NCBI GenBank assembly: GCA_963832135.1
Contig: CAWHTD010000009.1
Coordinates: 2,012,166-2,076,165, forward strand
Source: Vicinamibacteria bacterium
GTDB taxonomy: Bacteria > Acidobacteriota > Vicinamibacteria > Vicinamibacterales > JAENWD01
Length of the DNA stretch: 64,000 bases
Direction of reading: 5' to 3'
How positions within the stretch are numbered: the stretch's first letter is position 1; every line of letters starts with the position of its first letter. The translations under genes were made by a program, and so were the position numbers. The notes under the pieces are model-generated. The model made no database searches, had not been told where the DNA came from, and saw nothing but the letters and a program-made list of their open reading frames with translations. Shown here in pieces: positions 9,695 to 63,323 of this stretch.

Positions 9695-11109
<1,415 letters not shown>

Positions 11110-11530
11110 GCGTGACGGCCTGGCGGCGGCTCAGTACGACCGGCGAATGCAGAGGCTATGCGCCGTAGCTCTATAGACGAAACCCTGGCGAAGCTGTTGA
11201 AAGAAGGCCGGTTTACGCGGCTTCACGGATGAGCCAGTTGCGGAAATCGTCCAGTGCGGCGAGCCAATCCTTTCAATTGCTTGCGGCCGGTCGATTTGCA
11301 TTCGGATTCGGAGTGTACCTACATCTGTACCTGTCCCTACCGAGAAGTCGATCTGGCATGGTCAGCGCGAGCTCAATGGCGTTGATCACAGGTTGGCGTT
11401 GAGCCGTGGTGCACTCGGAGGCATCACTCCAACGCGAGCATCGCCGTCGGTGTCGACCTGACTGAACACGCGAAGGCCGTCCGTCAGCTGGCGCAGTAGC
11501 ACCGAAACGACGGGCCTTTTGGCACCGTCG

Positions 11531-12538
11531 CTACGCCGCTGCGCGGTCGTAGCGGTGATGCAGGCCGTTAACCTGTGGAATCTCGACGATGCGTCCGGCA
11601 GAGAGCGGCGTGGCGGGTCGTGACGCCGGTGCGTCCTTGCCGAGACTCAGGTGCGTCCTCGTGTTCATGTAGTACGCGACGTAGTCGGCGAGGACGCGCT
11701 GGAGCCCGGCGACACTGAGTACGATCACGTGATCGAGGCACTCACGTCGGATCGAGCCAATGACGCGCTCGACGTAGGCGTTCTGCCACGGCGATCGCGG
11801 CGCCGTGAGGACCTCGTGGATCTGCATCGCGCCGATGGTGGACACGACGTCCGTGAATGCGGCATCGCGGTCGTGCAGCAGGTACCGCGGCGCGTGGTCC
11901 TCGGGAAAGGCGTTGCGGAGTTGTTGGGCCGTCCATGCGGCCGTGGGATGGTCGGTGACGGCGACGTGGACGATCCGTCGCCGGTCGTGCGCGAGGATGA
12001 CGAGCACGAACAACAGCCGGTAGGTGACCGTTGGCACGACGAAGAAATCGGCAGCCATGATCTGGCCGACATGGTTGGCCAGGAACGTTCGCCACGGCTG
12101 TGATGGTGGCTTGTCTCGTCGCGGCATGTACTTCGCGACGGTCGCCTGACTCACCGAGATCCCCAGCTTCTGCAGTTCCCCATGAATCCGCGGCGCACCC
12201 CAGAGCGGATTCGCGGCGGCCATTCGACGAATCAACGCGCGGACCTCTGGAGCCGCGGCTGGACGACCCGTACGGTACCGACTCTTCCACGTCCAGAACA
12301 GGCGGAACCCGCGTCGGTGCCAGGCGAGTACGGTGTCCGGCTTGACGAGGACGAGCGCCGGCCGCCAACCGCTCCACGCCTGCGACAGCCACGCCCAGAG
12401 AACCCGATCCGCCGCGGTCAGACGAAGTCGCGAGGGGCGCGAGCGATTCAGGACCGCCAACTGATGCCGGAGCGCGAGGATCTCGAGGTGCAGAGCCGCG
12501 CGCGATCGAGTTGATGTCGTCTCGCAGCTTCCACGCAC
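11531..12538 (-). CDS. IS transposase, integrase-core (rve, DDE) type; the only apparently intact copy in the window
   Basis: 335-aa ORF: LEILALRHQLAVLNRS...WHRRGF...ADFFVVPT...HDRDAAF...PWQNAYVERVIGSIRRECLDH...GLHHRYDRAAA. IS ends and inverted repeats could not be defined by eye. Confidence 0.85.
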   Translation of the reverse strand: MRGSCETTSTRSRAALHLEILALRHQLAVLNRSRPSRLRLTAADRVLWAWLSQAWSGWRPALVLVKPDTVLAWHRRGFRLFWTWKSRYRTGRPAAAPEVRALIRRMAAANPLWGAPRIHGELQKLGISVSQATVAKYMPRRDKPPSQPWRTFLANHVGQIMAADFFVVPTVTYRLLFVLVILAHDRRRIVHVAVTDHPTAAWTAQQLRNAFPEDHAPRYLLHDRDAAFTDVVSTIGAMQIHEVLTAPRSPWQNAYVERVIGSIRRECLDHVIVLSVAGLQRVLADYVAYYMNTRTHLSLGKDAPASRPATPLSAGRIVEIPQVNGLHHRYDRAAA

Positions 12539-12705: not shown

Positions 12706-13353
12706 ATGGGAATGACCGGTGGGCTCGTTCGAGCCTCTCTCAAAGAAATCGCGCGTTTGCGCGAACACCCGGCCGAACTGCCGGAGTTCTTGGATTGCGG
12801 AATCTGGGCGCCGCCCAATCGCGAAGTGCGACCCAAGGGAATTCTCGGATGGCTGCTGAGGCTGACGCCGGTGAGGATCTACGAAAGCGATCCAGATGCC
12901 GTGCCGCCGCCCGGCGCCGAGCACGGCGCCCTCCGGCCGAACGTCGATCTCGACAAGGCGTGGGAACCGTTGCATTTCCTGCTCACCGGCACCGCGCTAG
13001 AGGGCGAAGAACCCGCGTGCTATCTCGCCCGCGGTGGTGAGGAAATGGTCGAGCAACTGGACGATGAACTGGGCGATGAAGGGAGCGTGTACAGCTCGAT
13101 TCGTGTGCTCACGCCAGATCACGTGGCGGCGTTCGATCGACACCTTTCGTCACTTACCATCGACGAGCTGAGACGCCGGTTCGACGTCAACCGCATGGTC
13201 GAACTGCGGATCTATGCGAAACGTCGGAGCACGAAGGCGCCGACTAACGACGACAGGACGCTGGATCACCTCATCGAGGCGTTTGAGGATCTGCGCACGT
13301 TCGTGCGTGAAACCGCCGCGTCAGGTGCGGGCGCGATCGCGTATTTGACGTAG
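12706..13353 (+). CDS. DUF1877 (YfbM-like) family protein
   Basis: 215-aa ORF. The pattern ASLKEIARLREHPAELPEFL...VDLDKAWEPLHFLLTG matches the YfbM/DUF1877 signature as I remember it. The gene is convergent with the repeat protein. Confidence 0.6.
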   Translation: MGMTGGLVRASLKEIARLREHPAELPEFLDCGIWAPPNREVRPKGILGWLLRLTPVRIYESDPDAVPPPGAEHGALRPNVDLDKAWEPLHFLLTGTALEGEEPACYLARGGEEMVEQLDDELGDEGSVYSSIRVLTPDHVAAFDRHLSSLTIDELRRRFDVNRMVELRIYAKRRSTKAPTNDDRTLDHLIEAFEDLRTFVRETAASGAGAIAYLT

Positions 13354-13519
13354 CGGCATTCTTGAGACCGTCTACTGACTGGGCTCGGCATCGCCAGAAT
13401 CGAGCTGTCGAACACCTCTCCGGTGTCCGCTGCCGGGTTCCATCAACCGAATGGTGGGACACTACGGGCGCAAGTCGTCCCGTCCGCCCAGCGGCGCCGC
13501 AGCGTGAGCCAGAACGGCC

Positions 13520-15344
13520 CTAATGTTTCCTTCGCCAGTCGCGAACTATCGATATCGTCGCCGAAGATGCAACCTTCGGTGCGATGGGCGCCGGCGATGA
13601 AGCCTTCGTCGTCATAGACGACGATTGTCCCTTCCCCGCGGCGGTTGCTGTCGCAGCTGCGGCCGACGGCACCTTTCCGGTCGCCTTTGCTCCCTGCGCC
13701 GAGTCAACCTTGCCTGCGGGCACTGCCGCCGATGGGATCTTCGCCGCCGGTGGAGCGGCGGGTACCTTCGCGTCGGCCTTCGGCGCCGGAGCGGCTGCGG
13801 CCTGCGTCGCTTTTCCGCTCGCCTCTGCTCCCTTCACCGAGTGAACTTTGCCAGACGGCGCCGCGGACGATGGGACCTTCGCCGCCGGCGGAGGAGGGGG
13901 GACTTTCGCGTCGGGCTTCGGCGCCGGAGCGGCCTGCGGCACTTTTCCGCTCGCCTTTGCTTCCTTCACCGAGTGAACCTTGCCTGACTGCGCCGCGGAC
14001 GATGGCACCTTCGCCTCGCCTGGAGCGCCTTGGGCGTTGGGGATTTTCGCATCGCTCTTCGGAGCGAACTTCTTAATATGCGTGTGTATGACCGTGTCCG
14101 GGGGCGCCCCGAGTTCGCCGGTCCAGAACGGCTCACAGTGACGCTCGCAGGCTGGACCGGATGTGCCGGTGAAGACGCCTTTCGCTCCTTGCCTGAGCAG
14201 CTCCGCCGGTCCCTCAGACTCGACGTGCCAGACGGGGTCGAGCTGGGTGCCCTGCATTCTTGATGCGGGCGATGGACCCAGACTCGCCATCGGTGGCAAG
14301 GGGGTGTGGCCCTTGTCGAGTGCTGCCTTGAGTGCGTTCCACACCTTCTCATCCGACACGGTAACTACGTAGCGCAACTCGCCATTTACTACACCGGCAC
14401 TGACGGCAACCGTGAGGTTCCGATTCCCGGACATGCTCCTGATCTGAGACGCAGCCTGGTTCAGGAAGTGCTCCTTCGTGTGCACGACAGCCTCGTCCCT
14501 GATCATCGCCTTGATGAATGCGTTCACGTCGGCTGGTAAGCCACCGCCTTCTCCAGCTGTGCTCCCTGTCGGCTGAGGAACTTTCTGGATAGGCGCGGGC
14601 TGCGGGACTTTTGGCACCGCTGGGGGCAGCGGGACTTTCGGCACTGATGCGAGCGGCGCGTGCGACGGTACAGCATTGCCGACAGCATTGACGGCAGCGA
14701 GCGCTGCGGCTGCAATCGGCGGAAGCGCGGGCACGGGTGCTCCCGGAGCTGTCGGTGCGGCGGGAAGCTTCGGTGCCTTCGCCGCCGGAACTTCGGCCGC
14801 CGCTGGCGCCGGGGGAAGTTTGGGCGCGGCTTCGTTCGGAGGGAGCTTCGGCGCGGCCGCCTTCGGAAGCTCGGCCCCGGCTGCCGGGATCGGGAGTTTC
14901 GGCACTTCTGGTGCCGGCGGCGGCTTCGGCACGCGTGCGGGTGGGAGTTCGGGCGCAGCCGGTATCGGAACCCGACGGGGCATAGCCGCCAGCATCATAA
15001 GCAGTCCAAAAAGGGCCTCCGCCTCCTTGTATCGTTGCGCTCCTGCTTCCTGATGGTCGCCTGCCCTGGCGGCCTGCTCCGCCTTTCGGTCCGCCTCGCC
15101 AGCCTGCTTGACGGGATCGAGCACGCGCGCCGCCGCGAGAACGCCGCTCGGCCCACCGCCTTCGCTCCTGTACCTGAACCGGCATCTCCTTGATGATTGC
15201 CTTCCCGGCGTCGACGATGCCGTCGACGATGCGGACGGGAGCCGGTATCAGAGAGGCCTGCACGACTGTCGTGATGTGGGTCTTGGCCGCCTCTTTCACA
15301 AAGCCCTTCAACTGTTCAAGGTACTTTGAGTCAGGTTCTGACAT
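13520..15344 (-). CDS. Pro/Ala-rich repeat protein with a central globular domain carrying a deaminase-like HVE...C-x3-C signature (apparent frameshift near 15,130-15,190)
   Basis: ORF 13520..15124 (534 aa) has PKLP/PAAP low-complexity sequence at the N-side and three ~45-aa tandem repeats at the C-side. The central segment is NLTVAVSAGVVNGELRYVVTVSD...WHVESEGPAELLRQGAKGVFTGTSGPACERHCEPFW (HVE at 14,219-14,227; Cys codons at 14,147 and 14,135). A sensible N-terminus, MSEPDSKYLEQLKGFVKEAAKTHITTVVQASLIPAPVRIVDGIVDAGKAIIKEMPVQV, starts at 15,344 in another frame behind GGGAG and then degenerates into Arg/Gly junk. That implies a one-base frame change. Confidence 0.6.
13628..14014 (-). repeat. 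Three in-frame tandem coding repeats (~129-141 bp each) inside the Pro/Ala-rich gene
   Basis: The unit is approximately AKVP..AAKVPSSAA.SGKVHSVK.A.ASGK..QAA.APAPK.D. The DNA copies are visibly similar (gcctttgct.ccttcaccgagtgaac.ttgcc...). Confidence 0.8.
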
Positions 15345-15372
15345 GGTCTGACTCCCGCGGTCGCTCTGGCTG

Positions 15373-18300
15373 TCACCCCTGCGCCTCGGCAACCAACCTG
15401 TCCGTTATCCACCGAATAGTCGCTGGCGCTCTCCCAGCGTCCATCGTCAACATCTGCTGAGCAAAACACAGACACGCGCGTTGCACGGGTTCCTGCGACT
15501 GGCGAGCAGAATCGGGCCGCTCCGCCGCGGGGAACTCGATCAGGTCGTACCCCGCACGCAGACACAGCTGCCAGGTCTGTGGATATCCTTCCTGTGTGGC
15601 GTCCGCCTGCTCGGCCGCCTGCCACCCGGCGCTATACCTCCCTTCCCCTATCAGGTCGGCCGCCGAGTACCGATACAGACACACCGCAGGCTCCTGGCGG
15701 CAGATCTGTTCGCACGCGACGAACGGAGGATAGTGGCGTGCATGGAGGGCATAGACATAGTCGTGAAACTCTGCACGCGATGGCTCCGGCTCCTGATCCG
15801 TCAATCTGGCCAGCAACATCTCACGCAGCTTGCTGGCCAATGTCTCAGTGTCGGAATACGTCCACTGCGCCTGCGCGCCGCGTTTCGTGGCGAACCAGTG
15901 GGCGGCACGAATCATCAGACAGCGGTTCAACTCCTGCTCGTCCAGCTTCTGGGGACGTTTCGCTCGTACCGACGGACAGCAGATTTGGCCAGACGCGATC
16001 GAGAGCGGAGGTGTCTTCAATGGTCGAGAGGATCGAGTGCGCGAACACGCGCTGGAATTGCTGGTCCTCCACGATGTGCCGCGCCGCGTCGCAGGCCGGG
16101 CCTCTCGTGATACAGGTTCGAGCGCACGACGGAAACGGCAGCAACAGGGACATGTCGATGTTCGGGGCTTGCCCACTCGCCTTGCCGGCGACCTCCGCGT
16201 TGTCCGGCGGGGACACACTGGGCCGTTGCTTCTTCGCCGGCACCTGGACCAACACGGGAGCGTCATCTCCTTCGCTGAACACTGCTGCTTGGCCCACAGC
16301 CAGCGTGGCGAGAGCCTGCACCTGCCGGTCGTTCATCGCCATCGCTCCTGCCAGCGATGCGCGATCGTCGAACGCGACCACGCGGTGGACAACCTTCAGG
16401 TTCGTGTTCTTGATCACGTCTGGAGCCAACCTGCCTGGAATCTGGTCGGCGATCACGACTCCCTGGCCGTAAGCCCTGATCTCGGACAGCAGGTTCGCGA
16501 AGGTCTCCACGGCCTTGCCGCGGGCGTTGGCCTCTTCCGACCGCTTCTGGGTCTCCACGGCGGAAAGGAGGCGGTGCGCCTCCTCTATCACGAGCAGGTG
16601 TTGCAGGTCATGGTGGCCGGAGGCACGCCGGAACTCAACCAGCCGGATGAACAACAGGCCCATCAGGAACGCCTTGTCGTCATCGTCGCCAATCGCCTCC
16701 AATTCAAGAACCGTGGGGTGTTCCAGGAGCGCACTCATCGAAAAGGAGCGCTGTACGTCGAGCATGCGACCCTTGCTGCCGCTGCGCAGGCTGTTGATCC
16801 TGGTGAGCAGCGCCGCGCGGATCGTCGCTTCGCTCTCGGCGTCATACCGGAGCGCCTGCGTCACGGCATCTACCTTCGCCGCCAGCTCCGAGAGCGTCGG
16901 GAACGCGGCGGTGAGATCCGCGTCCTCGTCCAGCCGCGCGTTGCTGTTGGTGGCCGTGTCCCATCCGCGATCTTCGTAGACGTAGTGGAGACACTGTTCC
17001 AGGACGGCCGGCAGCACCGACCACAAGCCGAAGCTCGCGTTGAAGACGGAGCGCAGCAGGTCGAGATGCACACCAACGGGAGTTCCCGGGAGCGCTTCGA
17101 GCGGATTCAATCGCAGCGGCGATACGTTCTCGTTGCCGAGGGTGAAAATCCGCAGCTTTGCCCCCAGTGCGGAGTCCCGGAGCAACGCACGGTATTCGGT
17201 CTTGGCGGGTTCGATGACCAGAAAGGGGATGTCTCGCGCCGCCGCCTGCCCGAGCAGGTGGAAGATCGTGTTCGTCTTGCCGGCTCCGGTCACCCCGGCG
17301 ACAAACGCGTGGCGCGCCAGGGCGTTGTACGTGATGGCGTAATTTGCCGGGGTGGGTCGTCCTCGATGAATAACCTGTCCTACCTGCAACCCCGCGTCAT
17401 CTGCGATTGGTGAACGGACGACGTCGAAATCGGGCACGGCCACCACGCTGAATCCACTTGTCTCGAGCTGTGGCAGGTGGATGTACGCGGCCAGTTGTGC
17501 CGAGGTGAGCAGGGTCTGAAACTGAAAAGGATGGCGGTAGCTGCCTGGTCCGGGCGAACCCTCGACATCCGGGATCGCCCAACCCCGGGCCAGATCCGTG
17601 GCGATCGGGCAGTCCCAGATGCGCACGGGTTCAGGTATCGAATGCTCGCCGGAAAACACACCACGCCAGACGCTCGCCAGGCGGTAGTAGCTGGTCGTAT
17701 CACCGAGGAGGTACACACTTGTCCGCCACCCGCCGATTGCGCCACCCGATGTGACGTTCTTGAGGAGTCCCTGAAGCAACTCGAGGTAGGACCGACTCAA
17801 CGGACTTGGCGCGGCCGCGGGATGCATCGGGGACTGAACCGCTCGCATCTCGTTGATGATGCCGTTCCGTAAATCGGAGATCGTGCTCTCGTGGACCGGT
17901 TCCGCGAGCACAAGCGCCGTCCAGGGGACGCCCGACAGCGCACGAATGAGCCGATCGAGCGGCAGCGCTCCGTCAACGGGATCGCCGGGTTTTGCCGTGG
18001 GGACCCCGAGTGCGAGGCCGGCTCGAGACGTCTGCCCTTCGTGTTCGTGTTCGGCCGCCGGAACGAGCTCGATCGAGGGGTAAAGGCTGTGAAGCATGGA
18101 GCCCAGGATCTGCTGCCGGTCGTCCATGACGGAGGCTGAGGCGCTCTCGCGTTCCGCCGGAGACCACACGCCCAGTTGAACGACCACGCCGTCGGCGGCC
18201 CCCTCGACGACGAACGCAACGGGAATCTTGTAGCCATACAGGCCGATCAGCACATCCTCGCTCACGAGTCGTCCGGGCGCGGAGCGGCCCGCCTTCTCGC

Positions 18301-18466
18301 CACGACCGATGGCGGTGACGCGTGAGACGCGGCGAAGTGGGGGTGGCGCGTGAGAGACCGGTGTGTTCCCGGCGAGAACGGCGACGTCCAGCGTCGTTCG
18401 CTGCAAGTAGTCCAGATGGTCGGTCGTGGCGATATCGGCCGGCATATGACCTCCACCCTGCGTCAT
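15373..18466 (-). CDS. HerA/FtsK-superfamily (DUF87-like) P-loop ATPase with an unassigned ~390-aa N-terminal region and a Cys-containing C-terminal extension (apparent frameshift near 15,960)
   Basis: ORF 15845..18466 (873 aa) carries Walker A GVTGAGKT (17,273-17,296), IPFLVIEPAKTEY, Walker B LLVIEEAHRLL and EIRAYGQGVVIADQIPGRL. The tail of that frame is junk-like, while ORF 15373..16266 reads sensibly from ...RAKRPQKLDEQELNRCLMIRAAHWFATKRG... onward. A strong SD (GGAGG) precedes the second Met, suggesting a start at 18,445. Confidence 0.75.
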
Positions 18467-18479
18467 CCCTGCCGATGCT

Positions 18480-19123
18480 CTAGGTAGTAGACACGGTGGC
18501 GCTCGGGGCGGATTGCAGGACCCGCGCCGGACAGCTCACGACGGGTGCACTTCCGATCGCAGCGCCCACGCGAGGAGCGGGCACCGGGCGCACGGTCGGC
18601 CCAAAGTTGCCGATGATCCTGAAGAAGAACAGGAAGAACACGACGAACAGCGCGATCACCACGACCGCTTTCACCACGGACCGCCAATTGACTGCTTTCG
18701 CGCGGACGGTCGCGCCTGTGGTCAGGTTGCGCACCCTCCCGGGACGGACGATCCGCCCCTCGCGCCAGGCCCCGGTACCTCCACCCGATCGCCATCGTTG
18801 ACGAACCCTTCGAACGATCGGCTCCGCATCTCGACGGGCACCGGTGGCAGGCGATTGCCGTCGGCGTCATGTCGCTCGACCCGAAACGTCCAGACGATGT
18901 GCGTGGAAGATTGCGCGCCGCGGGATTCGGTTCGGCTCTGGAAGCCTCGCACTTCGCCGACGATCGCGTCCGTGCGAGACTCAATTGAGTTGGTTATAGG
19001 GTCTGCGCCTTCGGACGTACGCGCTCCCATGGCACCGGCATCTGAAGCGCCCCGCCAACCTGCACCGGCGGGGCCCGTGCCCGGAGGATTGGACAAGGGC
19101 GGTCGGGTGGCTTTGTCGGCCAT
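18480..19123 (-). CDS. Small protein with a beta-rich (OB/SH3-like?) domain and a C-terminal TM helix (apparent frameshift near 18,760)
   Basis: ORF 18722..19150 contains ...IVWTFRVERHDADGNRLPPVPVEMRSRSFEGFVNDGDRVEVPGP. ORF 18480..18734 continues in another frame as ...REGRIVRPGRVRNLTTGATVRAKAVNWRSVVKAVVVIALFVVFFLFFFRIIGNF.... The likely start is MADKATR (19,123), behind AAGGAA. The gene ends 13 nt before the ATPase ORF. Confidence 0.5.
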
Positions 19124-19331
19124 GGCCAGTTCCTTTCTCCCGGTCATCATGGGCGGATCACTTCATCCGGGCAACGAAATCGGACTACTGAGACCTTGCC
19201 GAGGAAGCGCGGCGCATCGAAGTGGCAGGCGGCCGATTGGAACGGAACCCAGCGGGACTTCACTGCAGAATCCCAGACTACAAGCCTTAGGGCGGCAGCG
19301 TAGGGGAGGGTATCCGAAGCGAGGGGTAGCG

Positions 19332-19778
19332 TCAACGTGCGGTTGCGCACGATCGCCACCACAGCTCAACGGGACTCCTCGGACGCCGATTGTGGCGGGT
19401 GGGACCGCCGAAGGTCGGTTGCATTGATCTTTGGGGAATGTCATCCACATTCGGGACCGCCGCGGCTGGCGTGATCGATTGACAGAGTCGGCTCCATACC
19501 GTTTCGCCCGGCGGCACGTCGAGAGGAAGGAAATAGGTATAGGTGCCGGTCGGCGACACGTTTGAGTTCGAAGGCAAATAGCCGAGCGACACCGGCCTTG
19601 TAACGATCGGCGTCGTTGGTAGCGTCATGGTCCCAGGCATGGGCGGCGGCAGCGCGGGATCGAGCGCGCCTGAGTTCTGATCTGTCCACAAGCGGACGGC
19701 GGTGCCGTCGCGATGCCAGTAGGGTACGAGGAGGACGAGACTAACCACCACAAGACTGAGCGCAGGCGAAGTCGTCAT
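19332..19778 (-). CDS. Hypothetical signal-anchored or secreted protein
   Basis: An internal Met behind GGGGAGAG gives MTTSPALSLVVVSLVLLVPYWHRDG..., a hydrophobic N-terminal helix. No recognisable domain. Confidence 0.45.
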   Translation of the reverse strand: MTTSPALSLVVVSLVLLVPYWHRDGTAVRLWTDQNSGALDPALPPPMPGTMTLPTTPIVTRPVSLGYLPSNSNVSPTGTYTYFLPLDVPPGETVWSRLCQSITPAAAVPNVDDIPQRSMQPTFGGPTRHNRRPRSPVELWWRSCATAR

Positions 19779-20344: not shown

Positions 20345-20810
20345 GGACGGCGCGTCCAGATTGTGGGATCAACGCCGCATCCCGACGGTCTGTTCATGCG
20401 GCAGGTGAGTCGCACGCTGACCGGTACGGACGGGCCTGTTGGGCGCCCATCGCGTGCTGATTTGTGATCGTGACCGACAATGGAGCCGGAACGTGCGACA
20501 ACGGCTGGGCGACGCCGGGGTGCGCATCGTGCAGAGGCCGTTTTCAGGCGCCAAATGCGAACGCCTACGCCGAGCGGTTCGTGCGGTCCATCAAGCACGA
20601 GTGCCTCGACCGGATGGTGTCCCTCGGCGAGCGCCACTTTCGACGCGCTCTCAAGGAATTCGTCGATCACACCATTGCGAGCGGAATCACCAAGGACTCG
20701 ACAATCGGCTTATCGATGGGAGCGCGCCGAGGCGACGCGAGGGCGGGATCCGTCTGTGGCCGCGGCTGGGTGGCTTGCGAACCGAGAACTTCGCGTCCTC
20801 TGGCGGCGTG
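20345..20810 (+). pseudogene. rve-type IS transposase, 5'-truncated and frameshifted fragment
   Basis: Stitched frames read GSTPHPDGLFMRQVSR...[13 protein letters not shown]...[42 protein letters not shown]...[14 protein letters not shown]. This is closely parallel to the 36.1-37.15 kb copy. Confidence 0.75.
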
Positions 20811-20814
20811 AGAT

Positions 20815-21229: not shown

Positions 21230-21351
21230 GGTCGTACGTCGCCCGTAAGGGCATTATCCCTACGAGAAGTGGCAAACGACGGACGTGGCGCGCGCACGGC
21301 TCGCCCGAAAGGCACGTCAATTGCTTGGCGCCGCGGACGGAGGACGTCGTC

Positions 21352-23103
21352 ATGCTCAAAGGTCGCCTCGCGTTCGACGTGCGGATCGTTGCGGTCATCC
21401 TCACCACTGTCGCGATTCTGTGGCCTTCGGTAGGCGCCGAGCGCTCGCGGGCGGCCAGCCCTCCAGGGCCTTATGCGCTCACCGACCTCGGAACGCTCGG
21501 CGGATTGAGTGCGCAGGCCCTCGACGTCAACGACCTCGGTCAGGTCGTTGGTTATGCGACGACGGCCGCTTCACAAGCGCGCGGCTACATCTGGCGCAAC
21601 GGCGCGATGACCGATCTGGGGACGTTGGCGGGAACGAGCTCTGTCGCCTACGGGATCAACGCCCAGGGCGCCGCAGTTGGACGATCGACGATCGGCACGA
21701 ACTCGACGACGCACGCCGTTCTCTGGGAGAACGGCACAAAAATCGACCTCACGCCGGGCGCAGTCAGCGGCACCAGCGCGGCCAACGCGATCAACAACGC
21801 GAGACAGATCGTCGGCACGGCGGGTAACGGGTCGGGGTTCCTCTGGGAAGATGGCGTGTTGACCGTACTCGGCCATCTTGGCGGCGGCGCAGCGTATGCC
21901 GCGGACATCAACGAGAACGGGCAGATCGTCGGCTCGTCGAATACGAACATCGTCATCAACGAGCTCGGGCCCCTGGTGCATGCATTCGTCTGGAACGAAG
22001 GCGTGATGACCGACCTGGGCATGCTGCCCGGCGACGAGGAAAGCGGCGCAGCGGCGATCAACAATCTCGGACAAATCGTGGGCTCGTCGAGCGTCACCGA
22101 TCCGCTGACGTATGCGACGACCTCGCGCTCGATCCTCTACGAGAACGGTGTGATGGTGGCGCTCGCCGTGCCGAGCTCCGAGAGCTACGCGTCGGATATC
22201 AACGATGCAGGCATGGTAGTGGGCACGATGAGAACGGGCGTGTTCCATAGCAATTTCGACGCCTACATCTACGCCGACGGTGTCGCGACGAATCTCAACA
22301 CGCTGGTGCCGTCCGGTTCAGGCCTGCATCTGGTGACGGCAACCGGGATCAACAGTGCGGGGCAAATCGTGGGATGGGCGGTCGACTCGCGTAACGCGTA
22401 TCACGCCTTCTTGTTGACGCCGATCGTGGCGGGCACGCCAGCGATCAACGTTGCTGACAACTCTGTCATCGAGGGCAACTCCGGCGCGCACGAGCTTCGT
22501 TTCACCGTGGCACTCGGCGCATCCGCCACGCAGGCAGTCACCGTCTCCTACAGCACGGCCAATGCAACCGCCACGGCTCCCGGCGACTACGCGGCGACCT
22601 CCGGCCTCTTGACGTTCGAGCCGGGTCAGACGACGCGGACGGTCTCGGTTCAGGTCAATGGCGATCGGATCGGCGAGCCGGACGAAGTGATCCTGTTGAA
22701 CCTGTCACAGCCCTCCGGCGCCACCATCGGGGACGGCCAGGGCCGCGGCACGATCACGGACGACGAACCGCGGGCTTCGGTCGGCGATGTCGCGAAGAAC
22801 GAGGGGAATTCCAGCACCACGCAGTTCGTCTTCACGGTCGGTCTCTCCGCTCCGTCCACCGCGGCGACGAGCGTGAACTTCGCGACGGCGGACGGCTCCG
22901 CGAAAGCCGGCGAGGACTACGACGCCAGGACCGGGACAGTCACGTTCAATGCAGGCGAAACGACGAAGACGATCGCCATTACGGTCAGGGGAGACAGGAA
23001 GAGTGAGCTCAACGAGGTCTTCTGGGTGAATCTGTCAGGAGGGGCCGGCGTATTCCTCGGTGACTGGTCGGGTTCTGGTACGATTCGCAATGACGATCGC
23101 TAA
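21352..23103 (+). CDS. Secreted HAF-family extracellular-repeat protein with two C-terminal Calx-beta domains
   Basis: 592-aa ORF (internal Met start) with signal-like MLKGRLAFDVRIVAVILTTVAILWPSVGA. It has repeated G..A.AINN.GQIVG units and HAFLLTP, then two ...GDY....G.LTF.PG.TT.T..V.V.GD...E..E... modules. Confidence 0.8.
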   Translation: MLKGRLAFDVRIVAVILTTVAILWPSVGAERSRAASPPGPYALTDLGTLGGLSAQALDVNDLGQVVGYATTAASQARGYIWRNGAMTDLGTLAGTSSVAYGINAQGAAVGRSTIGTNSTTHAVLWENGTKIDLTPGAVSGTSAANAINNARQIVGTAGNGSGFLWEDGVLTVLGHLGGGAAYAADINENGQIVGSSNTNIVINELGPLVHAFVWNEGVMTDLGMLPGDEESGAAAINNLGQIVGSSSVTDPLTYATTSRSILYENGVMVALAVPSSESYASDINDAGMVVGTMRTGVFHSNFDAYIYADGVATNLNTLVPSGSGLHLVTATGINSAGQIVGWAVDSRNAYHAFLLTPIVAGTPAINVADNSVIEGNSGAHELRFTVALGASATQAVTVSYSTANATATAPGDYAATSGLLTFEPGQTTRTVSVQVNGDRIGEPDEVILLNLSQPSGATIGDGQGRGTITDDEPRASVGDVAKNEGNSSTTQFVFTVGLSAPSTAATSVNFATADGSAKAGEDYDARTGTVTFNAGETTKTIAITVRGDRKSELNEVFWVNLSGGAGVFLGDWSGSGTIRNDDR

Positions 23104-55509: not shown

Positions 55510-58388
55510 TCAAAGACCCGGCGGTGCGCCCATCGGCTCGGCCAGCGCGCGGACCTGGTCGGGCCGCAACTCGATCGTCGGGTTGAATCGATCGCTCTGC
55601 AGGTACGTCAGCAGGCTGGACAGCAGTTGCCGGGCGACGGAGTTCCCCGCCATCGCGGTGTTCAGGTCGATGCTGCTCACCAGAAGCCGGCCTCCGCCGA
55701 CACGAGCCTCGAAAACGAGCCCCAGGCGCCGGCTCGTGACCCAGTCGTCGATGGGCTGGACGATCGGCCGCAAGTCCGGCGGCATGTCATCCAGAATCAT
55801 GGCGCCGGCGCGCGTCAGCAGGAACCACCACTGCCAGTTGCTGTGAGCCTCGGTCGGGAAGTTCGCGAGCGCCGGGTGCTTCGGATCGCAGAGAATGCCC
55901 AGCGTGTGCGGCGCCTGACGGTGCGTCCATGCCGTGTTCCAGAAAATGCTGGAGAATCCGAGGGCGACCTTCCCATGCTTGTCGCCTCGCACGCGAGCTG
56001 GTGGGATCAGGAGCAGGTACTCGTCCGCCTCGCTTCAGTGTGGCGAGGGCGGCCTCGTCGAGGCTGTTCACGATTGTCACTGCCGGCGGCACTTGAGTGT
56101 CGACGCGCCGCGGGTAGACCCAGACATCCCAGTCGTTCTCGAACGGTGTGCCGGCCAGGGTGACCACGAGGTTGTAGCGCCGCGGCACGCGCAATTTGCG
56201 AAGATCCACGCGAACGCGGCCGAGCGCGATCCCGTTACCCAGCGCAATGGTACGGGGCGGGAGCTTGCCGCCGGCCACGACTGCGCCGTCATCTGCCACG
56301 AGTTTCCATTCGGCCACGGCGTTCTCGAGCGGCTTCGGACCGAAATGCGCGACTTCGATGTCGGTCTCGAGTACGTCTTCAGTCGTGAAGACTCTTCGGT
56401 CGAGCCGTGCCAAGGGCACCGTCGCGTTGCAGAAGCGGCGGTACTCGTCCGCCGTGACGTAACCTTTCGCTTCCCAGAAGGGGTCGAGCACGCCGACCAG
56501 TGCGGTCCCCTGGCCGGGGAAATCGTGAAGATCGAGCAGCTGGAATCCTCCCATTCCTGGCGTGCGTAGCGCCGATTCGATGTCCTCCTTGTAGGCGAGC
56601 ACCTGCAGCTTGCCCGACGCGTGCAGGAAGGCGCGCGCCTGGTCCGCCATGTGGCGCTCGTTAAGCCGGTCGCGGAATATCTCGAAGTTCTTCGGCTTCA
56701 GGTAGCCTGTGTACTTCGGGATTTCATCGAAGTTCGGATACACACACCACTGGCCGATCTCGTGGCTGATGACCGGGACTGACCGCTCCCCGACGTAGTC
56801 GCGATAATCGGTGCGGGTCTCGGGTGGCTTCGCATTGATCCGCGAGGCGAGGCCCGCACCCCATGCCTGGATGCGCGGATCCGGCGTGACGTGAAACTGG
56901 TTCTCCTTGATCTGGGGCCAACCAGAGGCTGCGGTGTACAGCCGGCGGGGATCGCTGGCGCGATAGCACTTGATCCATTGGGCGAGGTACTCCTCGTCTT
57001 TGCCCGCGGGCTCGTTGCCGTAGGCCATGAGCACGATCGATGGATGATTGCCGTACGCTCGGAGAATGCGGTCGGTTTCCTTGTAGATCCACGCGTCGAC
57101 AGGAAGCCCCACACCAATCCGCGTCGATTGGTTCGCCCACGACGCTGCCTCGACCTGATAGTAGAAGCCCAACTCGTCGGCTGCGATGAACGCCGCCTTC
57201 GGCGGACACCACGAGTGGAAGCGAATCATGTTCAGGCCGTGGGACTTGGCGATGCGGATGATGCGCTTCCAGGAATCGACATCGGTGGGCGGATGGCCGG
57301 TCCGCGGGAAGATGGCCGATTCCAGGGTTCCGCGAAAGAACGTCTTTCGGCCGTTGACGACGAACTGGGTCCCTTCGATACCGATCTCACGCAAACCGAA
57401 GATCATTGCGGCATCGTCGCCGTCGCTCAGGGTCGCGGTCAGGCGGTAGAGCGCAGGATCGAACTCGTCCCAGAGTCGTGCACCGTCGCCGAGCGGATAT
57501 TCGGCTTCGAAGACGCCGCCACCGGCCTCCCATTGCGTGTCGACCTCCAGCGGCGGCACCGGACCGGGCCGATCTGTGTTGAACGATTCGGCCACCAGCC
57601 GCACTTTGCCCCGACCTGCCGCTCCTGTCGCATTGCCTATCCGGCCACGCACACGCGCCGACTTTCGAGCGACGTCTGGAAACACCTGCAGATCGTCGAT
57701 CCAGACCGGCGCCGTTGCTGCGAGCTCGATTCGGCCGACGATGCCGTTCCAGTTGCCCTGAGTGTGATCGCTGATGCTGTGGGAATTGATGCCAACATCG
57801 ACGATGACGCGATTGTCGACACGGATCGTCAACTGGTGCTTGCCCGGTGCGAGCGCGGGGCCCAGATCGTACACGTGAGGTGTCGAGAGGCTGTCGTTGG
57901 AACCGATGATCCGCTTGTCGATCCACACGAGCGTCTGCCAGTGCGGACGCTCGAGTGTCAACACGACGCGCCTCCCCTGCCAGCCGGCCGGGACCTCGAA
58001 GTCGCGCTGATACCAGGCGGCACCGACGAAATGCTTGTCGGGTTGCAGCCAGAATGGAACCTTGATGTTCCCTGGTTGGCGGTACTTCTCGTATTCGGGT
58101 GCAGTGAAATAGGAGCGATCGACGATCTGCCCGGTCCACTTCGTGTCGAGCATGACATCCTCACCAAAGCCCTGTGCCTGTAATACCCCAGGCAGTTCGA
58201 CCTGCTGCGAGAGCTGACGCGTCGACCAGTCATCGGGAAGTCCTCTGTCGTCGCGGTCCAGTTCGAAGCGCCACGCGCCGGCGAGCGACCTGGCATCGTC
58301 GGTCTTCTGTGTGTGTCCTGCCGCGCTCAGTACCGAGGAGTACGAGGCTGACGAAGTAGGCGACAGTCGCGAGACTACGGGAGGTCAT
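55510..58388 (-). pseudogene. Glycoside hydrolase family 2 (beta-galactosidase-like) with a signal peptide; at least two apparent frameshifts (~58,320 and ~55,990)
   Basis: Signal MTSRSLATVAYFVSLVLLG (ATG 58,388), then by frame change ...AGAWRFELDRDD...MLDTKWTGQIV... (ORF 55787..58153: sugar-binding, Ig-like and TIM-barrel text such as NMIRFHSW, MAYGNEPAG, HEIGQW). The C-terminal 160 aa lie in ORF 55510..55992. Confidence 0.7.
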
Positions 58389-59875: not shown

Positions 59876-62800
59876 TCACGAGGAGACTGCCTTGCTCGTA
59901 AGAGTGCGCAGATGCAGCCTGGCAGGTTGGTGACTCGGATCCAGCCGGAGCACCAGGCGAAACGTTCGCAGACTCTCTGCCTGCCTGCCCAGTCCCCAGT
60001 AGCCCAACGCCATCAGGTAGCGGCAGTCGATCTCGTTACGGCGCGTCAGATCGTCGTCGAAGACGACGAATTCTGGCAGCGAGACGGCGAAATAATCGAT
60101 GCCGATCGGCTTCTTCAGCTGCTCTTTGCCGAATCGAACCAGCGATTGAAACCGCTCCCTGGCAGCCGGCCGCCGACCCAGGCGAGCCAGCGCCAGTCCC
60201 TGATAGAAGATCGTTTCCGGGTTCGGGTCGTTGTAGTACATCGCCACCGCCGGCGCCCGCATGCCAACGGAGGCGATCTTCCAGCACGTCTCGGCAGCAT
60301 CGCGACGATCCTGCCGTGCGTGCGCGGTGCCCATCCAATAGAGGATGTGGTTCTCCTGCGCGCCGTACAGTTTTCCTTCACCCAGATTGGCCGGATACGC
60401 GCGAGCGCGTCCCAACAGTTCGAGGGCGTGCTCGGGATCGCTTGCTTTCAGCCTTTTCTTGGCGAGCTCTACCAGGCTGACCACATACTGTCCGGTTACC
60501 TTGCCCTCGCCGCCTTCCCAGGGATGAAATCTGTGACTGGCCAGAATCTGCAGCGCTTCCTCGTGCGCCCCGAACGAGTTCAGAAGGGTCACGAACTCGA
60601 CGAGCAGGTCATCGCGCTCGTTGACCTGCTCGCGGTGGGCGCGCAGCAGTGCAAGGCGCCTGGCTGGCGCGACGCCTACCCGCTTCCGCAGAAGATCCAG
60701 CTCGAAAAGAACGCGCGCATCCGTCCGGTCGAGCGCAAAGGCCCGTTCGAGCGAACGAAGGGCTTTCGCCGGTTCGCGTCGCTTGTTGAAATACGCGAGC
60801 GCCAGATTGCGGTGCACGGTGGGGAACCGGCTGCCGGCCTTTCGTGATCGTTCCCAGCAGGCGATCGCCTCCTTCACCTGACGTTTGTCGTACCAGAGAT
60901 TGCCGAGATAGTAGGCGGCGCGGGCGTCGCCGGGATTCAGCTTCAGAGCCGTCTCGAGTGCGAGCACGCTATCGAGGCTGTTCGGGAAACAGCAATTGGT
61001 GTCCTGGCGTGAACCCAATGTGAAAAACCGTTGAGCCTCGCTCTCGTCGGCCTGGAGCGAGGCGTAGTAGCCGCACATGTAGAAGAGCATCGGACGTGAA
61101 TTGGGCAGGCCAGCGGCCCCGGCGTGGCCGGGAACGCGTGGCGCGGCGGCGGTGTCGGACATGACGCGATTCAGCAGCTCGATCGCGTCACCGTAGGCTC
61201 CTGCACGCGCGTAGTCCGCCGCAATCTCCAGGTGCGTGTGCGGCTCGCGTCGCATCAGATGCAGCAGCTCCGCCTGCTCGCGTGTCACCTCTTCTGCTTG
61301 GTTCATGTTGGCGAGCAGAGCGACGCGCTCATTGTGCGCACCGAAATCCAGAGGGTCGCGCGCAATGGCTGCGTCGGCCGTCTCCATTGCTTCGACAGCC
61401 CTTCCCATTCTGCGCAGCAGAAGCGTCTTGAGGTGGACCGCTCTTTGGTTGTGGGCATTGCGGGTGAGCGCCCGGTCGACCAACTCGAGCGCTTCGGCCC
61501 ACTCGCGACGGAGCGCTCTCAGCTGCGACGCCTGGAAGAACGCCGCATCCTGCCAGGCCGCGTCCCAGGACGCTCTGAGAAACGCAGCCTGCGCTTCGTC
61601 GAGACGCCCGAGATATCGAAGGCACACGCCAAGGTTGTAGTACGGCTCGCCGTCATACGGGTTCGCGTTGTGCCGGGTCTGGCGCTCAATCGCCGCACGA
61701 AAGAACGGCTCCGCCTTCGCGAACTGGCCGCGCCGCATCAGAAGCAACCCGAGTGCATTGTTGTTGCGAACGTCGCTCGGGTCGCGGCGAAGAGCTTCGC
61801 GGTAGTAGTGTTCCGGCTCGCGCGTGCCATGACGGTACTGTTCGAGGTGGAGACCCGCCTGGTAGAGCGCGTCCGCGCTGGCCAGCTCGCGCGGTTCAGG
61901 GATCGCCGCGGCGGGCTCGGGGACACTGTCCTGCTGCGGCTCCGGTGTGTACTCGACCAGCAACTCGCCTTCGCGACTCACCAGTTCGAGGCACAGTTCC
62001 TGCATCGCCGCACGAGGGACCCGCACGTCCGCCACCAGCGGCATTTCGGGGCTGAGGTCCGCTTTCCGTTCCCACAGACATTCGTCGTCTCGACGGAGGC
62101 GTAGCACGCTGTCCGGACGTGAAGAGGTCGTATAGGCTCCAAGCCGGACACGACCGTGTTCAACCTCGAGGCTGATCGCCGCGTGCACAGAGGCGTTCAC
62201 GACCCGGCCGACGGTTTTGTACGGAAGAAAGTACTGCTTGACTTCCTTCTCTTCGAACGGGTGCAGCCACGCGAAGTCGGGCTGGTTGTCGGCGAAAACA
62301 CCGCACATCAGCTCGACGTACGGCCCATCCTCGTCCGTAAGATTGCGATCCCACGCCTGGCCGAAGTCGCCGCATCCCCATGTCCATTGCTTCTTACCGG
62401 GCACGAGGTGATGGTCGGCAACGTGCAGCACGCCCGCCTTGCGTTCGTGATCGTAGCCGCCGAGGAAGTCGTAATGTGACTCGACCGCCATGTACGACGT
62501 GGGGACCGGGATGTTCGTGTACCTGGAGATGTCAACGCCGCGGGAGTAGTCCACTTTGTAGTATTCGCCGCGAGCGATCGGGAACGCGGAGACGTCCCGT
62601 CGGCCATGGTCGTAGACCGCACGCACATCTGGCGGAAATATCGATTGGTACGAGTCGCCGGCATGCACCGCTGCGTTCGTCCATAGATGAAAGCTCTGGG
62701 GCAGCGGCGTCGGGTTGAACAGACGGACATTGATCTCGAGCAACGCCCGGTCAGGATGGAGTGTCAGGCCCAGCGTACCTTTGAGGTGCCACATCGGCTC

Positions 62801-63323
62801 GATTTCGCTGAGCCAGAGCGTCATACTCCCGTCGGAGCTCTCGGTGATCGTATAGTCCACCGGACAATACGTGCCGGGTCGATGATGTTGCGGCCAGTTG
62901 AACTCGATGCCGCCGGAAAGCCAGGGTCCCGTCAGGCCAACCAGGGCCGGCTTGATCACGCGGTTGTCGTAGATGAATGGAAAGCCGTTCGTCTTGTCGT
63001 ACCGTGTACTGGATGCGGCCGCCGAACGCCGGCATCACCATCAACTTCAGGTAGCGATTCTCCAGAAACACGACGTGGTGTGACTCGTCCGTCCTATCGT
63101 CGAAAATGCGGTCGATCACCGGATAGGGGTAGACCCGCCCAGAGCTGCCCTGGTAAACACGGTTCTCCAGGAACATCGGATTGCGACTCGGCAGCCCCAC
63201 GAGGTACGTCGGGATGACCACCTCGTCTGCCCAAATGTGCACCTTCGCTGCCTCGGCGTCAGGAGCCGGCGGGTGGCGCACAGACTGCGTGGACCGATCG
63301 CCGCGTTCGGGGGTGTGAAGCAC
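59876..63323 (-). pseudogene. DUF5107-domain protein fused to C-terminal TPR repeats (~1,150 aa), one apparent frameshift near 62,990
   Basis: ORF 62751..63323 (...IPTYLVG..NPMFLENRVYQGSSGRVYPYP...FLENRYLKLMVMPAFGGRI) continues in ORF 59876..62959 (IKPALVGLTGPWLSGGIEFNWPQHHRP...KKQWTWG...), followed by a long TPR region. Confidence 0.65.

Follow-up and report, generated by a model that had tools for sequence, protein, structure and literature searches.

What does a HerA-like ATPase do when its gene is placed between that of a small, predicted membrane-anchored protein and that of a long, disordered protein bearing a toxin-like domain? This question is raised by a cassette of three tightly packed minus-strand genes in a 64,000-nucleotide (nt) stretch of DNA from a Vicinamibacteria bacterium (contig CAWHTD010000009.1), which is here called the window and to which all coordinates refer unless another record is named. 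The genes encode a small, putatively tail-anchored protein (18480..19150), recognised by tblastn and hidden Markov model matches directly upstream of the ATPase gene in related loci; an ATPase of the FtsK-HerA superfamily (15373..18466), recognised by its homologues and by matches to DUF87 and HerA; and a cargo or effector protein (13520..15344), recognised by its intact orthologue P0125 and by its composition. The cassette, which occurs in many soil bacteria, is apparently a conserved, undescribed operon that couples a HerA-superfamily ATPase to swappable toxins, and it may represent an unrecognised way of deploying them. The reading favoured here, with a probability of roughly 40%, is that it forms a self-contained toxin-deployment module that exports its own cargo.

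The three genes follow each other closely. There are 13 nt between the stop codon of the small-protein gene (18480) and the ATG of the ATPase gene (18466), and 28 nt between the ATPase stop (15373-15375) and the cargo ATG (15342-15344), which is preceded at a distance of 7 nt by the Shine-Dalgarno-like sequence GGGAG. The co-directional minus-strand open reading frames (ORFs) and their spacing are as the original prediction, a reading of the same DNA from its letters, had given them. The operon of four genes that it proposed has to be reduced to a unit of three, however. The fourth co-directional ORF (19332-19778, minus strand), located about 180 nt upstream of the small-protein gene and described as signal-anchored, has homologues beside none of the related ATPases and matches no family, and was rejected as a member of the cassette.

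Conservation of the cassette and its variable third gene

In a scan of one genome per species, at least 505 loci with relatives of the ATPase were found; 80 of these were fetched, and 39 contained a full-length ATPase. In 34 of the 39, the gene that immediately precedes the ATPase encodes the small protein. Among the other five, it is found elsewhere nearby in three, the contig is cut in one, and one has no small protein. These 39 loci belong to Streptomyces and other Actinomycetota, Acidobacteriota, Chloroflexota, Myxococcota, Paraburkholderia, and metagenome bins of archaea. The family as a whole is large, with 1554 ATPase homologues in a word-indexed search, and its members are publicly named only "DUF87 domain-containing" or "ATP-binding protein". 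In the closest locus the three genes encode proteins of 183, 1021, and 566 residues and are all unbroken; an intact orthologous cassette, whose absence, together with frameshifts confirmed by reads, would have counted against the original prediction, therefore exists.

The third position behaves very differently from the first two. Of 37 loci, 24 have a co-directional gene of 260-977 residues (threshold at least 250) after the ATPase. In 18 of these, the ATPase stop codon and the predicted start of the downstream gene overlap, and this gene appears often to be translationally coupled to the ATPase. An all-against-all BLAST comparison of the downstream proteins found similarity in three pairs only. 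All of them have polar N-termini without a signal peptide, nearly all are free of transmembrane segments, and 61-88% of their residues are disorder-promoting. Where neighbours conserved as a set had been expected, then, the small protein and the ATPase are kept together, the downstream gene varies, and neither the fourth ORF nor a convergent DUF1877 gene is conserved.

Some of these downstream proteins carry recognisable toxin domains, namely DUF2380/SitA6 (2.5e-16), Endonuclea_NS_2 (1.3e-9), and Ntox5 (3e-23), and a weak metallopeptidase-like hit was also obtained in their globular parts. DUF2380 corresponds to the myxobacterial toxin family SitA6, a demonstrated nuclease (PMC6091211, PMC12077181). 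Different toxin domains thus fill the same downstream position in different loci. No Pfam trafficking domain and no WXG100, LXG, or LDXD domain was found in the cargo proteins. Three cargo proteins carry peptidoglycan-binding OmpA domains (1.3e-10, 4.3e-6, and 2.4e-4); all three are without a signal peptide, two are without any hydrophobic segment, and the one in locus L075 has a single internal segment. To our knowledge, OmpA_C domains function only outside the cytoplasm.

Genes that could confer immunity were sought as well. Among the genes downstream of the cargo in 10 loci, no known immunity family was found, and in the window no co-directional ORF follows the cargo gene. The gene convergent to the cassette in the window (12706-13353) does encode a DUF1877 protein, as first read (Pfam 2.8e-26). 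The suggestion that it could act as an immunity or accessory partner found no support, since the orthologous locus has in its place a different convergent gene, of 181 residues and without a Pfam hit; no literature link was found either. Small co-directional genes stand directly after the cargo in three other loci (L020, 10497-10868; L028, 10779-11204; L075, 11589-12257), one of them, for a DUF202 membrane protein, overlapping the stop codon of the cargo gene. They are candidates for immunity genes, with no match to a known immunity family.

The ATPase and its membrane partner

The ATPase has about 1030 residues in intact relatives. In the window it is represented by an ORF of 873 residues and a C-terminal piece of about 200 residues in the next frame, which tblastn shows to be contiguous in homologues, and the public gene call is a truncated product of 866 residues, which was the self-match in the search. 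With that match excluded, the best 119 homologues have 933-1072 residues, mostly about 1020-1070, and are 49-69% identical. The 873-residue ORF matches DUF87 (PF01935) with 24.8 bits against a cut-off of 23.2 (E 2.8e-5), the PADLOC HerA model with 1.6e-14, and PDB chains of HerA, including some from defence complexes, with values down to 1.7e-11. The Walker A motif GVTGAGKT (17273..17296, minus strand) and the Walker B region LLVIEEAHRL (16568..16597, minus strand) were read directly from the sequence; the former is invariant in the homologue alignment, as is E-E-A-H-R in the latter. By these features the protein is a member of the FtsK-HerA superfamily, as its Walker motifs had led the original prediction to state.

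Its place within the superfamily is a separate matter. Among NCBIfam models, the DNA-translocating ATPase CedD is matched at 1.5e-19 by the window ORF and at 1.5e-20 by the orthologue P0002, far under the family cut-off. HerA_antiphage is matched at 2.2e-13 and 4e-14, respectively, with 52 bits (cut-off 800), and helicase_HerA with 41 bits (cut-off 970); a "serine-rich protein" subfamily gave 4e-35, also sub-threshold. Scores so far under the equivalog cut-offs, and an N-terminus that looks VirB4-like and not like a HAS-barrel alone, place the ATPase outside HerA proper. Nor are its partners recognised as those of HerA (NurA, SIR2, or DUF4297): neither the small protein nor the cargo gave any PADLOC or Pfam hit.

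The N-terminal region, which could not be assigned at first, now has a likely fold. An AlphaFold2 model of residues 1-375 (17342..18466, minus strand), built from 63 sequences, shows a mixed alpha/beta fold with a mean predicted local distance difference test score (pLDDT) of 91.9 and a predicted TM-score (pTM) of 0.90. When it was compared with the PDB using Foldseek, every one of the 13 hits at E<=0.001 was TrwK/VirB4 from the type IV secretion system of R388 (best E 3.6e-6 at probability 1.00; TM-scores 0.34-0.44), and the next hits, at E>0.01, were unrelated. This likeness is one of fold and not of sequence, as no CagE_TrbE_VirB/AAA_10 Pfam hit was obtained, VirB4_plasma gave 14.8 bits (E 0.004), the cut-off being 590, and a PDB profile search relaxed to E<=10 brought up no VirB4 chain. 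The C-terminal domain of about 290 residues (15373..16260, minus strand) contains invariant or near-invariant cysteines in the arrangement CxxCx6C ... Cx3Cx6C ... C. This tail is still without assignment, having neither a PDB match in the profile search (E<=1) nor a Pfam hit. The ATPase would then consist of a VirB4-like N-terminal domain, as modelled, a motor that is HerA-like by sequence, and a Cys-rich tail. No transmembrane segment was found in the ATPase family.

The small protein has about 210 residues once its frame is corrected, with a start codon at 19150 or 19123. It is composed of a disordered N-terminus, a beta-rich core of about 90 residues, and a C-terminal transmembrane helix. 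The core follows the consensus GEVRGFQxRxE...WTFRVER.D..GNRLPPVPVEMR..F.GF.N.GD.VEV...NLTTGA. It has no Pfam family, no PDB match by sequence or profile, and no PADLOC model. In the 41 homologues found, the C-terminal helices reach 2.4-3.3 on the Kyte-Doolittle scale. Six of 28 homologues bear zinc ribbons at the N-terminus and one bears an FHA domain there, and these fusions point to a cytoplasmic beta core; the small protein is therefore predicted to be tail-anchored in the membrane with its core facing the cytoplasm.

A chimeric ORF of 189 residues was observed in Streptomyces sp. NPDC020096 (L003, 7424-7993, equivalent to L034, 5406-5990), where it separates the ATPase gene from a normal small-protein gene. 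Its first 58 residues or so copy the N-terminus of the ATPase, including the LDYLQ motif, and its C-terminal part resembles the small protein with its transmembrane helix. It may hint at cooperation between the N-terminal segment of the ATPase and the small protein.

A close structural parallel to this pair is VirB3-VirB4 (TrwM-TrwK in R388; PDB 7o43, 8rtb, and 8rtd). Both share the fold of the N-terminal 375 residues, a soluble ATPase with an FtsK-HerA motor, and a gene for a small membrane protein immediately upstream of the ATPase. In contrast to VirB3-VirB4, however, the cassette is accompanied by no VirB2, B6, B8, B9, B10, B11, or VirD4 among its recurrent flanking families, its small protein is unrelated to VirB3, with a beta-rich domain and a C-terminal helix, and its ATPase shows no significant sequence match to VirB4. 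It also adds the Cys-rich domain of about 290 residues and a variable toxin gene.

The parallel raises the alternative that the cassette is an accessory or relic of actinobacterial or Gram-positive conjugation, in which a VirB4-type transfer ATPase and a VirB3-analogue small protein would be joined by variable surface, adhesin, or exclusion factors. Besides the fold, plasmid copies speak for it: full-length homologues are found on plasmids of Streptomyces, Embleya, and Rhodococcus. On pRoPD630_2 of R. opacus PD630 (L087, record 147810-156090), the cassette has MobC/relaxase on one side and the type IV coupling protein on the other, stands beside a complete actinobacterial type IV secretion operon, and precedes genes for two highly repetitive acidic proteins of 437 and 842 residues with DPGFEIPGDPTD repeats. 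A Streptomyces plasmid copy lies near a replication-relaxation gene. That R. opacus operon is nevertheless encoded on the opposite strand and has its own ATPases, and most copies of the cassette are chromosomal, in genomes of many phyla. Moreover, in a survey of 149 flanking proteins from 32 loci, which listed a family only if it matched at least two proteins, none of the recurrent families belonged to type IV secretion, relaxases, or coupling proteins; no family at all recurred more than three times, and the one that reached three was a transposase. The motor is HerA-like by sequence, as described above, and several cargo proteins contain bona fide toxin domains. The original prediction would have been undermined by an ATPase of VirB4 type with type IV secretion genes as usual neighbours. 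That objection touches the cassette through its fold but fails because such neighbours do not recur, and a role in conjugation is very improbable.

The cargo and its proposed deployment

The cargo protein of the window has about 600 residues after frame correction, and its intact orthologue P0125 has 566. A polar N-terminus without a signal peptide is followed by low-complexity segments rich in Pro and Ala, a central toxin domain, and a repeat tail rich in Lys, Ala, and Pro. Disorder-promoting residues make up 73% of the protein, and there is no strong transmembrane segment. The repeats noticed at first reading are real: a unit of 138 nt occurs three times in tandem (family D1; 13653..14060, minus strand), with copies 65-100% identical, and encodes the Lys/Ala/Pro/Ser-rich repeats of the tail.

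The toxin domain (175 residues; 14039..14563, minus strand), assigned from its HMMER homologues, invariant motifs, and model, is 73% identical between the window and P0125. A word-indexed homologue search with this domain returned no relatives, and an exhaustive HMMER search found 18, P0125 included. In the others among the 14 relatives inspected, it forms the C-terminus of proteins of 132-1441 residues. Its carriers include the Rhs-repeat proteins P0127, P0129, and P0130, and the Rhs proteins show a PxxxxDPxGL junction motif. By these alignments the domain is common to toxin proteins of different build, a hallmark of polymorphic toxins.

Is it a deaminase? The residues H113, E115, C139, C143, and H160 are invariant in 15 homologues, so that the HVE and Cys residues on which the first assignment depended are kept, and they form the pattern HxE ... 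Cx2-3C with the 26-residue spacing of zinc deaminases. In the AlphaFold2 model (pLDDT 80.5), helices begin at residues 114 and 143, so the motif H/C-x-E ... C-x(2-4)-C seems to be placed at two helix starts, as in zinc deaminases. Foldseek returned almost only cytidine deaminases as top hits, including DddA and blasticidin-S deaminase, with a best E of 0.07, TM-scores of 0.29-0.44, and none at E<0.001. The DddA-type toxins (PDB 6u08 and 8e5d), which gave the best fold matches and share the motif and its spacing, differ in that there is no sequence hit, the fold matches are below significance, and the cysteines are usually Cx3C and not PCxxC. No Pfam or PDB hit identified the domain as a deaminase by sequence. 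It is thus called deaminase-like, for its motifs and, weakly, its modelled fold, and not a proven deaminase. The original prediction of a deaminase-like partner of the ATPase is supported for the window; the partner is not one fixed effector, being hypervariable between loci. The downstream slot is in this sense a source of uncharacterised toxin domains, the present one having 18 detectable relatives. Deaminase toxins such as DddA are useful as base editors.

The resemblance to polymorphic toxins such as Rhs, CDI, and SitA extends to the cassette as a whole. Like them, it has a toxin that varies at a fixed genomic position, with an Rhs C-terminal domain in the window cargo and SitA6/DUF2380, Ntox5, and Endonuclea_NS_2 elsewhere. 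Contrary to them, it has no known trafficking domain or signal peptide and, in the close family, no recognisable immunity gene, and the toxin domain of the window is central instead of C-terminal. In surveys of polymorphic toxins, the type VII YueA-like ATPase is the only FtsK/HerA pump given (PMC3482391, PMC3113570, PMC3239186).

Under the export reading, the small protein would be anchored in the cytoplasmic membrane, where its cytoplasmic beta domain would dock the soluble ATPase, in a role comparable to that of VirB3 for VirB4 even though the small proteins are unrelated. The ATPase, presumably a hexamer, would spend ATP on engaging the protein encoded just downstream and would move this disordered, signal-peptide-free cargo into or across the membrane. 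The cargo would vary by genome, that of the window bearing a deaminase-like domain also present at the tips of Rhs toxins. What the analysis shows are the order of the genes with its conservation, the identities of the domains, the membrane anchor, the variability of the cargo, and its toxin and OmpA content; in this scheme the physical interactions, the translocation itself, and the target of the toxin are what we infer. A narrower version, in which the tail-anchored adaptor and the ATPase, with its VirB4-like N-terminal domain and HerA-like motor, constitute by themselves a minimal export apparatus that threads signal-free toxins and peptidoglycan binders over the cytoplasmic membrane, is somewhat unlikely but has a real chance. 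It would amount to a new route for the trafficking of polymorphic toxins, one widespread among soil Actinomycetota, Acidobacteriota, Chloroflexota, and others, with more elaborate relatives, bearing dynamin pairs and SUKH immunity genes, on plasmids of E. coli, Lactococcus, and Bacillus.

Export is favoured because OmpA domains occur in proteins without an export signal, because the toxin domain is shared with Rhs proteins, and because SUKH genes accompany distant relatives; the VirB3/VirB4-like arrangement and the disorder of the cargo are further reasons. An ATPase without a transmembrane segment beside a small protein with a strong C-terminal helix is also counted in favour of a secretion-type architecture, and so are flanks that show neither a recurrent family nor enrichment in defence genes. 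If export is correct, the cassette would extend the known routes of polymorphic toxins by one more, would give an example of a VirB4-like ATPase at work where there is no type IV secretion system, and would explain how OmpA-type and toxin proteins leave the cytoplasm without a signal peptide.

A close known counterpart for such a pump is EssC/EccC of the type VII secretion system (YueA-like), which serves LXG/WXG toxins and is likewise a membrane FtsK-HerA ATPase handling signal-free polymorphic toxins (Zhang et al. 2011 and 2012; PMC3113570, PMC3482391). The cassette differs from it in having one ATPase domain and not two or three, no transmembrane segment in the ATPase, cargo without WXG100, LXG, or LDXD domains, and no genes for EsaA, EssA, or EssB. 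An additional point of likeness is the FHA domain of one small-protein homologue, as EssC carries an FHA domain.

Distant relatives were found on plasmids of E. coli (L088, pTW10590_133), Lactococcus (L089, pB26B), and Bacillus sp. PGP15 (L095, p1), with about 30% identity over residues 230-750. Their operon begins with a pair of dynamin-family proteins, continues with a tail-anchored protein and the ATPase, and ends with an HNH/EndoVII nuclease and an SMI1/KNR4 (SUKH) protein. The predicted tail-anchored protein, non-homologous to the small protein of the cassette, is present in E. coli and Lactococcus, its position being taken by small hypothetical proteins in Bacillus; the SUKH immunity gene follows the nuclease in the E. 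coli and Bacillus copies, and the nuclease of E. coli has an acidic N-terminus. The E. coli relative is found in one of 5426 complete genomes. No published description of the dynamin-linked plasmid operon was found. That these plasmids keep the logic of tail anchor, ATPase, and nuclease, with or without SUKH, is counted for export.

Several observations nevertheless weigh against export. The cassette conserves no polytopic channel protein, a protein-conducting pore would have little to rest on with a single transmembrane helix in each small protein, and diderm hosts would need an additional route across the outer membrane. The TM-scores of the VirB4 fold match are only moderate, and the sequence of the motor is nearest to HerA and CedD-type DNA-handling ATPases, anti-phage HerA among them. 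About one third of the close loci have no large downstream gene, and no recognisable immunity gene follows the toxin in the window or in most close loci. A WYL-domain regulator adjoins two distant relatives (Bacillus, upstream; Acinetobacter), and dynamin pairs adjoin three (E. coli, Lactococcus, and Bacillus). Both WYL regulators and dynamin pairs are typical of defence loci.

Part of this evidence favours instead an abortive-infection or anti-plasmid defence, in which a membrane-tethered HerA-like ATPase would sense or capture foreign DNA and activate or release a toxin within the infected cell, which would die or be arrested. Besides the matches of the ATPase core to anti-phage HerA (PADLOC HerA, HerA_antiphage, and PDB HerA chains) and CedD, and the WYL and dynamin genes, the lack of an immunity gene in most close loci would fit a toxin that is kept inactive until triggered. 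The cassette also occurs on plasmids and beside insertion sequence (IS) elements, and defence systems commonly swap effectors between homologous loci. HerA/FtsK "capture" systems have been proposed as defences (PMC10853773). On the other hand, the small protein and the cargo match no PADLOC model, and no defence family beyond generic kinases was recurrent in the flanks of the 32 loci, which showed none of the enrichment in defence genes that the original prediction had proposed to look for. PADLOC itself recognised only a generic HerA, and the locus was discarded as a known defence system. The cargo is long, disordered, Pro-rich, and equipped with secreted-type toxin domains; the OmpA domains of three loci have no obvious cytoplasmic use; the SUKH proteins of distant relatives point to toxins used against other cells; and the N-terminal domain is VirB4-like, unlike the N-terminus of defence HerA. 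Defence is therefore held as a serious, if somewhat unlikely, alternative.

The comparison with SIR2-HerA and DUF4297-HerA, the model adopted in the original prediction, leads to a similar result. They share with the cassette a HerA-clade ATPase in an operon with a toxic effector, and their core matches by sequence. The partners of the cassette are not SIR2 or DUF4297, though, and it has a VirB4-like N-terminus and a membrane-anchoring partner; its effector, a long and disordered protein, is hypervariable and bears toxin domains of the secreted type. This idea is kept as a rival, export accounting at least as well for a variable, disordered cargo. If defence were correct, the cassette would represent a new design of HerA system, tethered to the membrane and equipped with effectors that are disordered and hypervariable.

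The "capture" systems (Rakesh, Aravind and Krishnan 2024, PMC10853773) combine HerA/FtsK with nuclease-type effectors in mobile neighbourhoods, as here, and differ in their Orc/Cdc6 ATPases, restriction-type nucleases, winged-helix proteins, and DndFGH partners, none of which is present in the cassette. The partners described for them are other than those of the cassette (PMC10853773, PMC12839542). The literature search returned only type VII YueA-type ATPases, DndH/BREX "capture" systems, and SitA toxins; no paper describing the cassette was found in the searchable literature, which is no proof of absence.

Frame breaks at GTAC sites and the surroundings of the cassette

Each of the three genes is divided between two reading frames, which was noticed at first reading and is borne out by alignment to intact homologues. 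In the small-protein gene (18775..18779, minus strand), one C is missing right after GTAC, the window having GGTA-CCGGGG where the nucleotide alignment gives GGTGCCCGGGG in the orthologous locus L090. In the ATPase gene (15966..15970, minus strand), one extra G stands before GTAC (GTC-G-GTACGA), and its removal gives LLSVVRAKRPQKLDEQ, matching LLSVVQAKTPPRIDEQ in the orthologue. The cargo gene (15170..15174, minus strand) has likewise one extra G before GTAC (CAG-G-TAC), and without it reads ...KEMPVQYRSEGGGP..., matching ...KEMPVQYRKEGGGP... in the orthologue.

These breaks suggest a further alternative, namely that the window holds a decayed, non-functional copy with three real frameshifts in an IS-flanked region. 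All three genes are interrupted, the public ATPase call is truncated, the region has an IS on one side and a transposase fragment on the other, and a genuine pseudogene of the ATPase is known in the beewolf symbiont Streptomyces philanthi bv. triangulum (L056, 6067-9108), where it is spread over at least four frames. All three breaks in the window, however, are miscounts by 1 nt of the G run before GTAC or the C run after it, and apart from them the frames are free of stop codons and 68-73% identical to intact orthologues.

The same lesion affects unrelated genes. A DUF5107/TPR gene of more than 1100 residues (ORFs 62751-63323 and 59876-63034, minus strand) is shifted at GGTAC (62999-63009), with positions 5-51 of the DUF5107 Pfam profile in the upstream ORF and 51-298 in the downstream one, and deleting one G restores ...GGRIQYTYDKTNGFPFIY... 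A GH2-like gene (55510-58153, minus strand; Glyco_hydro_2_N and Glyco_hydro_2_C) has an apparent frameshift at GTACC (about 56017), where removing one C gives ...LKRGGRVLLLIPPARVRGDKHGKVALGF...; as its C-terminal piece has no Pfam hit, continuity is in this case deduced from the reading frames only. Frameshifts were called by homology and Pfam continuity, detection based on G+C content at third codon positions being too noisy.

Thus, all five recognised frameshifts are changes in the run length of G before or C after GTAC, and since only about 2% of positions are that near a GTAC site, this is not due to chance. GTAC itself is found 172 times in the window against 99 +/- 8.5 expected from dinucleotide-preserving shuffles, with no overall base preference around the sites. 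The excess and the indels together suggest a methylated GTAC motif that confuses base-calling, and a GTAC-specific modification system is possibly active in the organism. The simplest explanation would be a run-length miscall beside the modified motif in a long-read assembly, the contig being 2.14 Mb long. Of the two possibilities first considered, an inactive copy or assembly indels, the second is the more likely; the frameshifts are probably assembly or sequencing errors, the cassette is probably intact in the organism, and decay is improbable. For annotators this is a reason for caution, as GTAC-site indels in this assembly create false pseudogenes.

Regarding its surroundings, the cassette had been described as cargo of a tRNA-Asn island between IS copies, for which the evidence is weak. 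The tRNA-Asn gene (305-379) lies 12 kilobases (kb) from the cassette; the genes at 0.4-11 kb between the two are ordinary metabolic genes with no integrase among them, and the repeat search of the window found no direct repeats of the tRNA 3' end. The G+C content is flat across the window (0.59-0.69), with no deviation in the cassette region. Integrase, direct repeats, and atypical composition, by which a genomic island is recognised, are thus all lacking at the tRNA-Asn gene. A Pfam scan of the window ORFs did identify an rve-type IS transposase (11531-12538) and a transposase fragment (20464-20811), the two having no nucleotide repeat of at least 25 nt in common. Promoter and terminator scans gave no excess above chance.

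Three minor features of the window were also recorded. A 40-nt inverted repeat (465-504 and 11226-11265, 88% complementary) flanks a 10.7-kb segment between the tRNA-Asn gene and the IS, and could correspond to duplicated gene ends or to a rearrangement boundary. An isopropylmalate-synthase-like gene (9775-11109, plus strand; HMGL-like and IPMS_D2 domains, 444 residues) ends about 400 nt before the IS, and its product gave no match to the C-terminal LeuA dimerisation domain that long-form LeuA carries; it may have been cut by the IS insertion or be a naturally short form. On the other side of the cassette, a plus-strand gene (21325-23103) encodes a protein of 592 residues with a signal-anchor-like N-terminus, in which four spaced copies of a 33-nt unit (family D2) give rise to INxxGQIVG repeats.

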